A stretch of DNA of 64,000 nucleotides, taken from an uncultured Candidatus Saccharibacteria bacterium. Lineage in GTDB: Bacteria > Patescibacteriota > Dojkabacteria > SC72. Numbering within the stretch: position 1 is the first letter of the stretch; every line of letters starts with the position of its first letter. The stretch covers positions 182,511-246,510 of the forward strand of contig CAZEQZ010000001.1 in the NCBI GenBank assembly GCA_964514595.1, read 5' to 3'. Positions 39,801 through 45,800 of the stretch are shown one piece after another. A program made the position numbers.

Positions 39801-42800
39801 GGAGAGTTACGATTAGATCAGTTTGTAAATTCAACAAATAATTAATATGCCTACTACGTTAAACAAAACAGCTGGACAAGAGAGAACAAAGAAAGAAATA
39901 GAAGCTATAAGTGATAAAATTAAGGCTTCTAGGCTCAATATTAATGACATAATAATCCCTCTTTCTACGGGATTAGTATTAATTATGTTAGGAGTATTCG
40001 TATTTGTACCGATGATAAAAACTGCAATGGAATTTAGAACAGAGTATCGAGAAATAAGGGATAAGGAGAAGAAATTAGAGGAATTGGAAAATAAGCTTAA
40101 AAGTGTAGATGAGGGAACTTTTCAAATAGACCTTTTAAATGCAAAAGAAGTCATACCTAAAACATTAAGGGTCTCTAGTTTTATGTACTACATAGATACT
40201 TTGGCGAATGAGAAAAGACTTGTTTCTAGAACTTTGACAGCAGGAGATATTCAAGTTTCTGTGACAAAGAGAGATGAAGATAAGAAAGATAAAAGATCAT
40301 ATTTGGGGGTTAGTGGGCCATTGTCATATACTGGATCTATGGATAACATATTAGACTTCCTAGATAGTTTGTACTCGGCTTCTCCTTATATAATCTCCGC
40401 TGATAATGTCTCTTTAAAACAATCTGGTACTGAATGGAGAGTTACTCTTAATGTTACAGGTTATTATGTACCAGATAGAAGTATTAAAGTGGACCCGTAT
40501 CTTCCTTTTACAAGTTACACTCAACACCAGAGTATAATTGATATCTTCGCTGAAAAAGCAGAAAAACTAAGGTAGTTTATAATTCTTCGTCCATTAACAT
40601 ACTCTCACTGGAATCCTCCGCCTGAGTTGTATCTATATCATCAGGTTTGTGAGAATTGTCGTCCTTGATTAGTACTTTCACTCTCCTCTCATTTCTTATA
40701 GCATGAATAGTGACTAGATCCCTTATCGCATTTATGGTTCGACCCTTTCGACCAATCACAACACCTTTATCCGCCTCTGCGACATCAATGGTCAAAATAG
40801 TTAAACCTGGAAAGTCTATACTCTCCCTCTCTTCCACACTAACCGCATCAGGATTATTAACTATTGACTTAACAATATGTTCTAATAGCTCTTTCATTTC
40901 TAAGTAAAATATATTTTATTAAAATATTATACTACTCTTTCTCCTCATTTGTCTTCTTTTCAGTATTAGGCTTTGTAGAGCCCCTCTTAAGTCCCTTTAG
41001 AAGACCCTCTTTAACGAAATATTGAGCTACAGTATCAGAAGGTTGAGCACCCTTACTTAACCAGTACTCTGCCCTTTCTTTATCTATGTCAAAAGTAGAA
41101 GGCTTGTTTCTAGGATTATAATAGCCTATTTCTTCAACAGTTCTACCGTCCCTAGGTCTACTAGCTTCTACGATAACAACCCTGTAATGGGGTTGTCCTT
41201 TTCTACCTGTTCTTTTTAATCTAATCTTTAACATGAGCTGAATTCTATCAGATCAAATATTTTAATTCAAGGATACATCCTCTTTCTCTATTAAATCAAG
41301 AGCTTTTTGAGCTGCATCCTCCTCTGCCTTCTGTTTGCTAGGTCCAAAACCGGTACTTACTGTCTTTCCTCCCATCTTCAATCTAACTGTAAAGTATTTA
41401 TCATGATCTGGACCGTGTTCTTTTATAATTTCATAAACAGGAGTCACCTTATGTTGTGCTTGTATAACCTCCTGTACTTTGGTCTTAGGATCTATAAAGA
41501 GATCATTATCAACAATATGTTCGAGCTTCTTAAGTAGAGTTCTTTCAATAAACTTTTGGCATTCATCAATTCCTTTGTCTAAATATATTGCGCCGAGTAA
41601 AGCTTCGAACGCGTTTGCTAAAAGATAATCCTTGTCTCTCCCTCCCGAATCCTCCTCTCCCTTAGACATTAGTAAGTGTTCCCCAACTCCTATCCTTCTA
41701 GATTCTTCAGCGAGACTTTCAGTTCTTACGACCGCAGATCTTATTGCAGTGAGATCTCCCTCCGGTTTATCTGGATATTTATGATAAAGCTCGGACGATA
41801 TTACCAATTCTAATACAGCATCTCCTAAAAACTCCAATCTTTCGTTATTTCTTAATCCTCTACCCCTATTCTCATTAAGATATGATCTGTGAGTAAGTGC
41901 TCTTGTAAGAAGCTCCTTCTTAGAGAAAACAAATCCTATTTTATTCTCTAACTCTTCACTATTCATTATTTTCCTCCTTTTTAGTCTCTTCATATATTGC
42001 CCCTAGTACCCCATTTACGAATTTGCTACTAATCTCCCCTCCAAAATCTCTAGCAACCTCTATTGCCTCATCAATTGCTACTTTAGGAGGTGTGATCTTT
42101 GCTAAGAATCCTTCGAATATAGCTATTCTGAGTATTTGTAAATCAACTAACTTCATTTGACTAATTGGCCACTGTGGGGCGTGAGAAGCTATTATTTTAT
42201 CTATTTCCTCTGTATTCTCTTCCACACCATTTACAATATTTTCGTAAAGTTCTTTATTAAATTCTTCCATCTCGTTGATATCTAGCAGATCTTCAACGGT
42301 AATTTCTTCTGTGGGCATCCCCCCCTTTTTGAAATATTTGGAAAATAGCTCCTGTAGTGCAAGTATTCTAGCTTGATGTCTTGGATCTGTAGATCTTTTC
42401 ATATGGTATTACTTAGATTTTTTATAATTACCACAGTATTCGCACTCAAAGTGGCTTCTCTTTACGTTGCCACACTTAGAACATTTAGAAACAGATTTAA
42501 CATCTAAAGCATTATGTGCTCTTCTTCTGTTCTTCCTACCTTTTGATATTTTTCTTTTTGGTACTGCACCCATTATTAATTAGTTATATATTAAGCTTAG
42601 TGATTATATGTAATATGTTAATATATTTCAACAATTTATACTATCCAACTTTCCCGTATTTCGATTTCTTCGCCAGCCTTTATGTTCTGTTCAATAATAC
42701 CCTTAGCTAACTGACCCTCTATCCTATCTTGTATGTACCTTCTTAAAGGTCTGGCACCAAGACCAGGCTCATTGGCTTTATTTGCAATTAACATAGGGAT

Positions 42801-45800
42801 CTGTTCCGACCACTTAATTACAATATCTTTCTTCGCTAACCTTTTAGCTAAATCCTCTAGTAGAAGAGTGGCAATTTTGCTTAAATTATTAAGATCATGT
42901 GGATTGAATACTATTATTTGGTCAAACCTATTTATTAACTCAGGCCTTAATGACTGTCTAATTTCAAGTAACACCCTATTCTTTGCTTCTCCCCAAAGTG
43001 AGTGATCCTTCCCTAAAGACTCAAGGAGCATAGCACTACCTATATTACTAGTACATACTATGATTGTATTTGTGAAATCTACACTTTCTCCATGACTACT
43101 CGTGAGTCTTCCCTCATCGAATAATTGAAGAAACAGATCTAGGATATTTGGATGAGCTTTCTCTATTTCATCAAAAAGTACAACTGTATAGGGATTTCTC
43201 TTCACCCTATCCAACAAAGTAATTGTAGTTTGTCCAATCTCCCCTGACGAGGAAGAACCCAAAAACTTTTGAATACTTTCCACTTCTTGGAACTCTGACA
43301 TATCTACTCGAACAATAGCTTCTTCTATACCAAAAAATTCCTCTCCGACAATCTTTGCTAAATGAGTCTTCCCCACACCCGTTGGCCCTACAAAAAGGAA
43401 GACTCCTATTGGTTTATTAGGATCTCTAATATCTGTTCTTGCTCTTCTTAGAGCTTCAGTTACTGCCAATACTGCTTCATCTTGTCCAACTACTCTTGAT
43501 TTAATATTTTCTTCCAATTTAATCAACCTGTTACTTTCTTCTTGATCCACTTCTGTCACATTAATATTTTTCTGTATAGATATAGACTTAGATACATGTT
43601 CTGCTGTTATCTTCTTAATCTCATTAGATTGTGCCCAGGAGCATGTTGCTTCTATAGTTTGAACAGCACTACTTGGCAATTTTCTTTCTTTAACATATCT
43701 TTGTGCTAATTCCACAGATGCAAAAAGTGCAGGAAATGTAATGAAGCATTGGAAATTCTTTTCTAAGGATGGAACTTTGCTTTGTAGTATAGTTAATGCA
43801 TCTTTTGCTGTAACTTCTTTCACTTCGATATTAGTAAAGCTTTGTCTTAAAGATTCGCTAGTATAGAAGTATCTTTTATAATCAGCATAGTTAGTTGTTC
43901 CCACTATTGGAAATTTGCTATTTAAAATATATGGTAACAACATACCTGCTATTGAATGATTAGATTCTTCGGCCTTTCTAGGTATCAATTCTTGCATTTC
44001 ATCGATATATAGGATTGTATTTCCGGCTCTTTCTAATTCAGACATTGCCTTAATTATTAACTCCTCAAGATTTTTCTCTTTTTTTGAAACTGCTATTAAT
44101 CCATTTAAGTCCAATTGAATGATCCTTTTATCTTTCAACTGTATAGGCACATTTCCAGAATTAATTCTTTGGGCTAGTCCAAAAATAATGCTAGATTTCC
44201 CCGTGCCTGGCTCTCCAACAAGTAAAGCATTTCTGTTAGATAACTTTCCAAGTGAAGAAACAAGTGCCTCCACCTCATCGTCATGTCCGATACCATAAAC
44301 GTCCCTTGATTCGGACATCAATTTGTTTAAATCCTTGCTGAAATGGCTCAATATGAAGGTATAGCCATATATCCACTGTTTGGCCACTCCCCCTTTTCTG
44401 TAATAAGGAATATTTGGATCCAGGTAATTTGTCCTTCTCTTCCTATACAAAATTTCATTATTATATGAACAAATCTCTCTTAATATATCAATATTCAGAT
44501 TGTTTTTTGCAAGTAATTTCTCCAACCTTGGATATATCCTCATCATTGCAAGGAACACATGTTGTGGCTCCAACTGCCTACTGTTTGTAAGGAGGGCTTC
44601 TTCCAAGGAGTATGTTAACAAACTTCTTAAACCTGTAATTGCAGTATCGGGAATATCTGTTTCTGTTATACCATCAGCATTGATCATATCAACAGTTATT
44701 TCAATACCAGTTCTTCTGATTATCTGCCCGACTTCAAAATTAGATTCCACTAAATCATTTAAAAGAGCTAGTGGACGGAAAGTTTTCTCTTTAGCAAAGA
44801 GACAAAGTAGTTCGAGAGTCTCCTCGGTTACAAAATTAATTGTTTCTAAATGTGCATATCTACCAAATTTAAAGCCACTTCCCCTTATTTCATCGATATC
44901 CTTTTGTGGTATGTTTTTAATCCTTGGAAGTTGAATAGGATGACTTTTATCTTCATAGAAATCATGCCAAAGGGTTATTACACTTATAATTGATACTCCG
45001 AAGAGGAGATTAACAATATTGGAATCTAGTATCTCAAGTAGAGCAGGAAATGGTGCAAGAATTCTGGCATATTTGAGCATAAAGGCAAATGCTATGATCA
45101 ATCCGGGCAATACCAGAATATTTGCAATTATTCTCCTTATATCATTGAACTTCTTATATCTCAGGAAGTTCTTAATAATAGCCTCTATCTGGGGTGTAGT
45201 AATGCTAAAAAAATGATCCCTTGAAAGCAAAAACACGGATTCATCCTCATTCTCGAATATGGAATATTTCTTCTCCACAATACCAAATTTATTGCTATTC
45301 TTTTTGTGGAACCCTATTAAAGTTTTTTTGTTTTGTTCGAATCGTAAGGCCATTTTAAAAGAGAGATATTATTACAAAAACTAATGAACCTATGGGCAAA
45401 ATAAGCCATATTAGAAATACCAAGATATATGCTAGAACACATAGTAGATATAGAGATATAACAATTGGAAGATACAGTAGCTTTATTAAAATGCCAAAAA
45501 GATATCCTATCATGGAATAATCTCTATGCCATGGAAGGAAGAAATGTCTTATTAGCAAAGATATGGAAAATTGATCATCTACAACGATACTAAGCCTAAG
45601 AAGCCTTTTAAGATGCCATGTCGGCATTTTGATATACCACCATCTTAGAAAATCCTGGAAGGTGTAGAAAAAAATGGTCGAGTATGAATCGATCTTTATC
45701 TCATTTAGCATCTGTTGACCCGAAGCGTCTATCTGTGTATTTTCCGTTCTCATTTTGGGCAGTTTAAACTATCTACTTAAGTTTATTTCAAAACCCAAAT

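Follow-up and report, generated by a model that had tools for sequence, protein, structure and literature searches.

A Clp/Hsp100-type ATPase of Dojkabacteria with a predicted N-terminal membrane anchor and a conserved small membrane protein neighbour

The stretch of DNA analysed here, referred to as the window, comprises 64,000 nucleotides (nt) of contig CAZEQZ010000001.1 (assembly GCA_964514595.1, positions 182,511 to 246,510), deposited as an uncultured Candidatus Saccharibacteria bacterium and placed by GTDB in the Dojkabacteria. The minus strand of the window carries a complete coding sequence (42636..45353) with an ATG start, which the open reading frame (ORF) call, Pfam matches and orthologs identify as a 905-residue class-I Clp/Hsp100 ATPase. 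The domain order, taken from the sequence and from models, is an N-terminal beta-domain, a hydrophobic helical hairpin, a Clp_N domain and two AAA+ modules (D1 and D2). This order and its conservation make it very likely that the architecture is that of a membrane-anchored Clp-type ATPase. The protein probably belongs to a subfamily of class-I Clp/Hsp100 ATPases that is specific to Dojkabacteria and integrated in the cytoplasmic membrane. The favoured reading, which is considered reasonably probable as a whole, is that of a membrane-tethered hexameric remodeller or extractase that acts independently of ClpP and has a small partner protein. The function taken by itself, that of a ClpP-independent membrane remodeller or extractase, is proposed more tentatively.

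The gene and its start are well conserved. The sequence-only reading, made before any database search, had placed a 905-residue ORF at these coordinates; it was recovered on the minus strand, and its first methionine is invariant in 53 aligned orthologs. An identical protein (P0014) and at least 119 further clusters at 57-80% identity are full-length orthologs of 901-907 residues, with a query coverage of 99-100%. Where the source states an organism for these orthologs it is Candidatus Dojkabacteria, and some entries carry a ClpA or ClpC product label alone. Public labels for the family are ClpA, ClpC or "AAA family ATPase". Among GTDB species representatives, 73 loci with the N-terminal module were found; most are labelled Dojkabacteria/WS6 or uncultured Candidatus Saccharibacteria, and a few Patescibacteria, Microgenomates or simply bacterium. 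A profile of the N-terminal module (residues 1-172) matched 23 clusters among 1.84 billion representative proteins. The longest matches in these clusters are 854-939 residues, which is the size of the ATPase, and the shorter ones (43-539 residues) look like fragments, so the module is seen only fused to the Clp-like ATPase. To our knowledge, the characterised Clp/Hsp100 double-ring machines are all soluble. The full-text literature searched contained no membrane-integral Clp/Hsp100 and no description of the Dojkabacteria family.

The N-terminal region was modelled with AlphaFold2 (AF2) over residues 1-335 using 21 diverse orthologs (mean predicted local distance difference test score, pLDDT, 82; predicted template modelling score 0.75). 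The model consists of four beta-strands within residues 12-50, a long helix (53-95), a short helix (103-109), a further helix (112-136), a linker and a helical domain (167-307). The strands form a beta-domain (residues 1-52, 45198..45353 minus; like this one, all parts of the gene named below lie on the minus strand) that is predicted to be cytoplasmic. They are located at residues 12-17, 22-25, 38-43 and 47-50 with pLDDT values of 81-92, and the motif FLLTRDHFFSISTPQI within the domain is strongly conserved among orthologs. The beta-domain had no match in Pfam (residues 1-348, E <= 10), in NCBIfam or among PDB sequences, and profiles of the N-terminal region gave only noise against PDB sequences and NCBIfam.

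The two strongly hydrophobic helices noticed in the sequence-only reading were upheld. The first, TM1 (residues 73-95, 45069..45137), lies within the AF2 helix 53-95 and gives a Kyte-Doolittle (KD) peak of 2.59 in a 19-residue window from residue 75 (IIANILVLPGLIIAFAFML). The second, TM2 (residues 112-130, 44964..45020), falls in the AF2 helix 112-136, gives a peak of 1.89 in the 19-residue window from residue 108 and ends in an LWHDFY interface motif. No window in the first 50 residues or past residue 140 exceeds 1.25. The hydrophobicity is kept across the 120 orthologs compared, with values of at least 1.6 in all 120 for TM1 and in 104 for TM2. G84 in TM1 and both L128 and W129 at the end of TM2 are invariant, P83 is at least 90% conserved, and the juxtamembrane motif LWHDFYxDKSHPIxLP as well as GFKFGRYAHLE are strongly conserved. 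The short loop between the helices (residues 96-111, 45021..45068) varies more than any other part of the N-terminal region and is predicted to be extracytoplasmic from conservation and charge; lysine and arginine average 4.3 in the N-terminal flank of TM1 and 1.8 in this loop across the 120 orthologs. These positive-inside charges and the need for cytoplasmic ATP suggest that the hairpin inserts with an N-in/C-in topology, which is the only sensible one since the ATPase rings must be cytoplasmic. A monotopic, re-entrant hairpin that still tethers the protein to the cytoplasmic face is also possible because of the invariant G84 and the highly conserved P83.

The helical domain that follows the hairpin (residues 165-307, 44433..44861) is predicted to be a divergent Clp_N domain with a double Clp repeat. 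The earlier suggestion of Clp_N-like repeats holds at the level of the predicted fold, but a Pfam search of this sequence gives no Clp_N match even at E <= 10, and the assignment is therefore based on the fold. Pfam weakly detects the domain in 6 of the 21 orthologs used for the model (best E 2e-4). In the model, 111-125 residues of the domain align to solved Clp N-domains, the Clp_N fold is complete without the hydrophobic helices, and these helices are N-terminal to it. The sequence-only reading had allowed that the hydrophobic segments could be buried core helices of a Clp_N variant or could be missing from orthologs. Neither was found, because every ortholog retains the hairpin, which the AF2 model places outside the Clp_N domain.

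The two AAA+ modules account for the remainder of the protein. D1 with its lid spans residues 335-608 (43530..44351; Pfam and alignment) and contains Walker A GEPGTGKSS and Walker B ILYIDE; the Pfam matches are AAA at 377-491 (E 3.6e-21) and AAA_lid_9 at 516-608 (E 6e-11). D2 with its small C-terminal domain spans residues 610-899 (42657..43526; Pfam and conservation), and the AAA_2 and ClpB_D2-small domains expected from the sequence-only reading were found at 647-813 (E 8.9e-46) and 822-899 (E 1e-18), respectively. A weak Pfam match to Torsin also falls on D2. As far as sequence can tell, a classic AAA module with lid followed by AAA_2 with ClpB_D2-small makes this a class-I Clp/Hsp100 protein.

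The residues for ATP binding and hydrolysis are conserved. D2 has Walker A GPTGVGKT, Walker B LFDE and an intact NR arginine finger and GARP sensor-2. Among the 53 aligned orthologs, K386, D451 and E452 of D1 and K662/T663, D728, E729, R809 (arginine finger) and R868 (sensor-2 GAR) of D2 are invariant, and Walker A and B are canonical for both rings in all 60 species-level ORFs. Since the Walker residues and the D2 arginine finger and sensor-2 residues are invariant, the pattern indicates that purifying selection maintains ATP binding and hydrolysis in the enzyme of this clade, and D2 shows this most clearly.

The protein does not fit any of the named Clp families. NCBIfam ranks ClpB, ClpA, ClpK, ClpG and TssH at the top, but each score is less than half of its curated cut-off, for example 478 bits against 1232 for ClpB (TIGR03346), 419 against 993 for ClpA (TIGR02639) and 356 against 885 for ClpV/TssH (TIGR03345). 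Compared with ClpA, ClpB and ClpC, there are approximately 165 extra N-terminal residues, which form the beta-domain and the two hydrophobic helices, other residues stand in place of the pore-loop tyrosines and the D1 Arg-Arg finger, and a small membrane protein gene is an obligate neighbour. Unlike ClpB and ClpC, the protein has no M-domain; alignment to solved structures gave no counterpart to ClpB residues ~440-520 or to residues 398-457 of the ClpC chain. ClpA aligns collinearly, in one piece, over residues 335-899, and the layout without an M-domain resembles ClpA. The IGL/VGF tripeptide with which ClpA and ClpC contact ClpP is lacking. In contrast to ClpV/TssH, the neighbouring genes are housekeeping and type IV pilus genes and not those of type VI secretion. 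The defining features of ClpA, ClpB, ClpC and ClpV are therefore absent, and the protein is assigned to class-I Clp/Hsp100 by its domain content and catalytic motifs. The database labels "ClpA" and "ClpC" imply a partnership with ClpP that the sequence does not support.

The gene is accompanied by a small membrane protein gene, which encodes 132 residues (45355..45753 minus). It had been described as following the Clp gene, but it is actually upstream, with its TAA stop codon 1 nt ahead of the Clp ATG, and rpmF is the gene on the downstream side. The small protein has the motifs WWY, DDxFSxSLL and FFLPWHRD and is strongly hydrophobic over its C-terminal half. It has 133 homologs; every name given by the sources is "hypothetical protein" and the named organisms are Dojkabacteria or Patescibacteria. 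No Pfam domain was found in any homolog and PADLOC gave no match to the protein. Its AF2 model is all-helical (pLDDT 84.6) and had no informative fold match. The gene is directly upstream and on the same strand in 68 of the 68 related loci with room for it, and it is also upstream in L001, L003-L005, L080 and L081. Because of the 1-nt spacing and the universal co-occurrence, the ATPase and the 132-residue protein probably form a stoichiometric complex.

These features suggest a mechanism in which a hexamer would be tethered below the membrane on 12 helices, with the entry face formed by the N-domain and D1 presumably directed towards the bilayer, and would be joined with the small membrane protein in the stoichiometric complex. 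ATP, mainly in D2, would drive the remodelling, disassembly or pulling-out of membrane-embedded or membrane-associated proteins. The clients would be released into the cytoplasm and ClpP would not be involved. If substrates are threaded at all, the activity would resemble that of an extractase or remodeller (Msp1, Cdc48) rather than that of a protease. It is also conceivable, although doubtful, that the 12 transmembrane helices and those of the partner form a membrane conduit aligned with the axial channel, which would make the complex a retro-translocation or import motor into the cell. If true, a bacterium of an episymbiotic, genome-reduced lineage would possess a counterpart to the Cdc48/Msp1 extractases or to the import motors Hsp93/Ycf2-FtsHi of chloroplasts.

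Several observations count against a threading remodeller with a membrane anchor and a partner. The D1 pore loop (residues 421-428, 44070..44093; alignment to ClpB and ClpC) has the sequence AVSKKEKN, opposite AGAKYRGE of ClpB. The tyrosine is missing, the aligned column is K, N, G or R in the 120 orthologs, and only 24 of them have any aromatic residue in the loop. In the D2 pore loop (residues 700-708, 43230..43256; alignment), GEIG takes the place of GYVG. The tyrosine position is variable, with a family pattern of x-[L/F/M/Y/I]-G; the residue before the glycine is L, F, M, Y or I in 102/120 orthologs (F or Y in 37/120), the glycine itself is present in 105/120, and the loop is the most variable stretch of D2. 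The Arg-Arg pair of D1 (LERRF) is changed to Gln-Ser, so that practically every ortholog reads LRQSF or a close variant; R503, shifted one position from this finger, is invariant. The substrate-gripping elements are thus non-canonical as judged by alignment. Two canonical AAA+ modules had been claimed from the sequence; both modules are present with intact Walker motifs, but the canonical label does not extend to the pore-loop tyrosines or to the D1 Arg-Arg finger. For the anchor, TM2 is moderately hydrophobic, with a KD value below 1.6 in 16 of the 120 orthologs, and a simple sum on the Hessa scale, with approximate values, is positive for many orthologs. The evidence for an interaction between the ATPase and the 132-residue protein is gene order.

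The remaining point on this side comes from three distant orthologs (P0139, P0143 and P0146; 28-30% identity) that keep the N-terminal module. All three have lost the Walker B glutamate in both rings, the D2 arginine finger and sensor-2, and P0146 additionally lacks Walker A of D1. From these losses they look like pseudo-ATPase derivatives of the family. The context was examined for P0143 (L081, 6001-8820) and P0146 (L080, 6001-8565), and both loci have the upstream small gene and the synteny of L32-nusB-rnc-rpsP-KH-pilONM. The loss of catalytic residues from these syntenic orthologs suggests that the role survives at least in part without ATP hydrolysis, and their existence leaves room for a scaffold or Torsin-like reading.

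According to that alternative, the protein would be a non-threading, Torsin-like membrane ATPase or scaffold, and the double ring would be a nucleotide-controlled platform on which a membrane complex with the small partner is assembled. It is judged unlikely, although it draws on most of the points just listed: the loss of both pore-loop tyrosines and the variability of the D2 loop, the replacement of the D1 Arg-Arg finger, and the orthologs at the same locus that have kept the N-terminal module and the partner gene without the hydrolysis residues of either ring. Torsins are the AAA+ proteins phylogenetically closest to Clp/Hsp100 and have an N-terminal hydrophobic membrane-association domain; they have no aromatic pore loops and no arginine finger of their own, and rely on transmembrane cofactors (PMC5425593). 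However, the hydrolysis residues of both rings are all invariant in the clade, the L, F, M, Y or I beside the D2 glycine in most orthologs could still grip a chain, and the partner is small and all-helical without an AAA-like fold that could supply an arginine finger. In this respect it differs from LAP1 and LULL1, the Torsin cofactors, which are AAA-like and supply the finger; here D2 keeps its own R809. Torsins are also single-ring, eukaryotic proteins of the endoplasmic reticulum lumen. An FtsH-like anchored Clp protease, in which the protein would be the membrane-bound ATPase partner of ClpP, is improbable. The lineage does encode ClpP, and in at least 11 related genomes (L015, L016, L019, L020, L030, L031, L053, L070, L077, L080 and L081) a tig-clpP pair is located approximately 3 kb upstream of the Clp locus on the same strand, with ClpP proteins 63-71% identical to the L080 ClpP query. 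The helix-loop-helix region for the tripeptide is present with a length similar to that in ClpA, and its S-L-G-K is superficially close to the IGL of ClpA. However, the docking pattern [ILVM]-G-[FLIM], sought as the IGF/LGF loop of the sequence-only reading, occurs in residues 768-803 of only 1 of the 120 orthologs. This region aligns without gaps to ClpB and has a gap opposite the ClpC VGF loop (yvgfnvqde), and the loop tip is variable. Consistent with the earlier remark that clpP is not adjacent, tblastn found neither clpP nor ftsH in the 64-kb window; the queries were ClpP from a related lineage and approximate E. coli sequences. The earlier suggestion to look for clpP elsewhere was fruitful in the related genomes, and there variable small ORFs and a dus gene on the opposite strand separate the tig-clpP pair from the Clp locus. 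The position of clpP in these loci was considered as that expected for clpX, which would imply a partnership. This was rejected given the intervening unrelated genes and opposite-strand dus; no clpX follows clpP in the related loci and no clpX-sized ORF lies between clpP and the Clp locus. ATPase-dead orthologs would furthermore be unable to drive proteolysis. Taken from the sequence, the Clp-like ATPase would work without ClpP.

Two further alternatives are still less probable. The protein could assist, as an additional motor, the type IV pilus machinery encoded nearby or some other secretion or uptake apparatus of the envelope, as pilM/N/O and a full type IV pilus cluster are located 2-14 kb downstream, at lower coordinates, in the window and likewise in every long related locus that was examined. 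The pilus genes are, however, on the opposite strand and behind the housekeeping block rpmF-nusB-rnc-rpsP-KH, and we know of no type IV pilus system with a Clp-type ATPase. Proximity is weak evidence in this case because gene order in these small genomes is conserved generally, and a pilus role is very unlikely. The least plausible explanation, which can almost be set aside, is an ordinary soluble ClpA, ClpB or ClpC ortholog whose hydrophobic stretches are buried N-domain helices or an annotation artefact. The public labels agree with it, but the modelled Clp_N fold needs no hydrophobic helices, which precede it in the chain, their hydrophobicity is far above that of every other segment, the NCBIfam equivalog cut-offs are all missed by a factor of two or more, and the start codon and N-terminus are conserved.

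The membrane-tethered remodeller or extractase favoured here has partial parallels in known systems. Like FtsH, the protein would have a two-helix N-terminal anchor and a ring at the cytoplasmic face with its entry side to the membrane, the geometry here being a prediction. FtsH, in contrast, has one AAA ring fused to an M41 zinc protease (HEXXH), whereas here there are two rings and no protease domain; the 25 top-ranking Pfam matches do not include Peptidase_M41, and ClpB_D2-small forms the C-terminus. The FtsH-like action proposed in the sequence-only reading was not borne out, given the missing protease domain, the near-absence of the docking tripeptide, the lost pore-loop tyrosines and the dead syntenic orthologs. 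The working principle proposed here is that of Msp1/ATAD1 and Cdc48/p97, whose ATPase rings act at the membrane surface and clear proteins from the bilayer but do not themselves degrade them. Both come from AAA clades other than that of the present protein, with which they share no homology beyond the AAA fold. Msp1 has one ring, one transmembrane helix and aromatic pore loops. The membrane anchor of Msp1 is N-terminal (PMC12793716). The PTEX system of Plasmodium offers another comparison, in which a ClpB-type ring (HSP101) acts on the EXP2 membrane pore; the structural match to it is generic to the Clp_N fold. HSP101 is not membrane-integral, keeps its M-domain and pore-loop tyrosines, and meets the pore with its D2 exit face and not its N-terminal face.

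The family appears to show a Clp scaffold wired into the membrane with a dedicated small membrane protein across a lineage of the candidate phyla radiation, and it has shed the class-defining M-domain, ClpP loop and pore-loop tyrosines. It could serve as a test case for how much of the pore-loop and arginine-finger machinery a class-I ring needs, for membrane-protein quality control in genome-reduced episymbionts and, given the syntenic ATPase-dead orthologs, for the decay of an AAA+ enzyme to a pseudo-enzyme.

Downstream of the Clp gene are rpmF (42409..42573 minus), nusB, rnc, rpsP and a KH-domain gene. Of the related loci, 60/62 have L32 downstream and 61/62 have nusB, and the same order is found in L001, L003, L004 and L005. 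The 62-nt gap between the Clp stop codon and rpmF contains a near-consensus sigma-70-like site (TTGAAA-17-TATAAT, 42603..42631 minus) that matches the consensus at 11 of 12 positions; the region around it is not enriched as a whole for such sites. This site may mark the boundary of a two-gene Clp unit, with the ribosomal and RNA-processing genes transcribed separately. From their first start codons, the nusB and rnc ORFs overlap by 35 nt (41959-41993). The same tight junction recurs in related loci, so the start of rnc is probably an internal ATG.

The wider window was also surveyed. The housekeeping synteny around the Clp gene is conserved in relatives. An anti-phage defence system was considered from PADLOC and rejected, since the similarity to DolB and PDC-M37B is generic, at the level of AAA_2, and covers part of D2. 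Rfam had no match in the window. Among the ten largest other ORFs, Pfam recognised gyrase, type IV pilus ATPases, BipA, glycosyltransferases, an integrase and a TrwB-like ORF. The type IV pilus cluster (28722-40575, plus strand) is complete, with T2SSE ATPases at 28722-30530 and 30551-32197, PilC, a prepilin peptidase, several N-methyl pilins, a response regulator and PilM/N/O. The PilN-like ORF (39039-39845) contains a low-complexity (Thr-Pro)n stretch.

The first part of the window has an 850-residue ORF (2999-5551) with a TrwB-type type IV coupling-protein domain (E 5e-7) and a tyrosine integrase (11062-12426). The GC skew is uniformly strong and positive over 1-12 kb around these two genes, and the region may be an integrated mobile element. 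On the minus strand, ORFs of 581 residues (13354-15099) and 633 residues (17142-19043) have no Pfam match at E <= 1e-5 and flank a 648-residue triple glycosyltransferase fusion (15199-17145).

A tandem duplication is located at 45808-45937, in the intergenic region from which the small-protein gene and dus diverge. It has a 65-nt unit with 86% identity and a 35-nt exact core (AATCCTTCCACAGGATTATAGTACCAAAGTTTTGC, minus strand), and is found only there in the window. With CTATAAT on the plus strand of its core, the repeat may be a promoter or operator that was duplicated.

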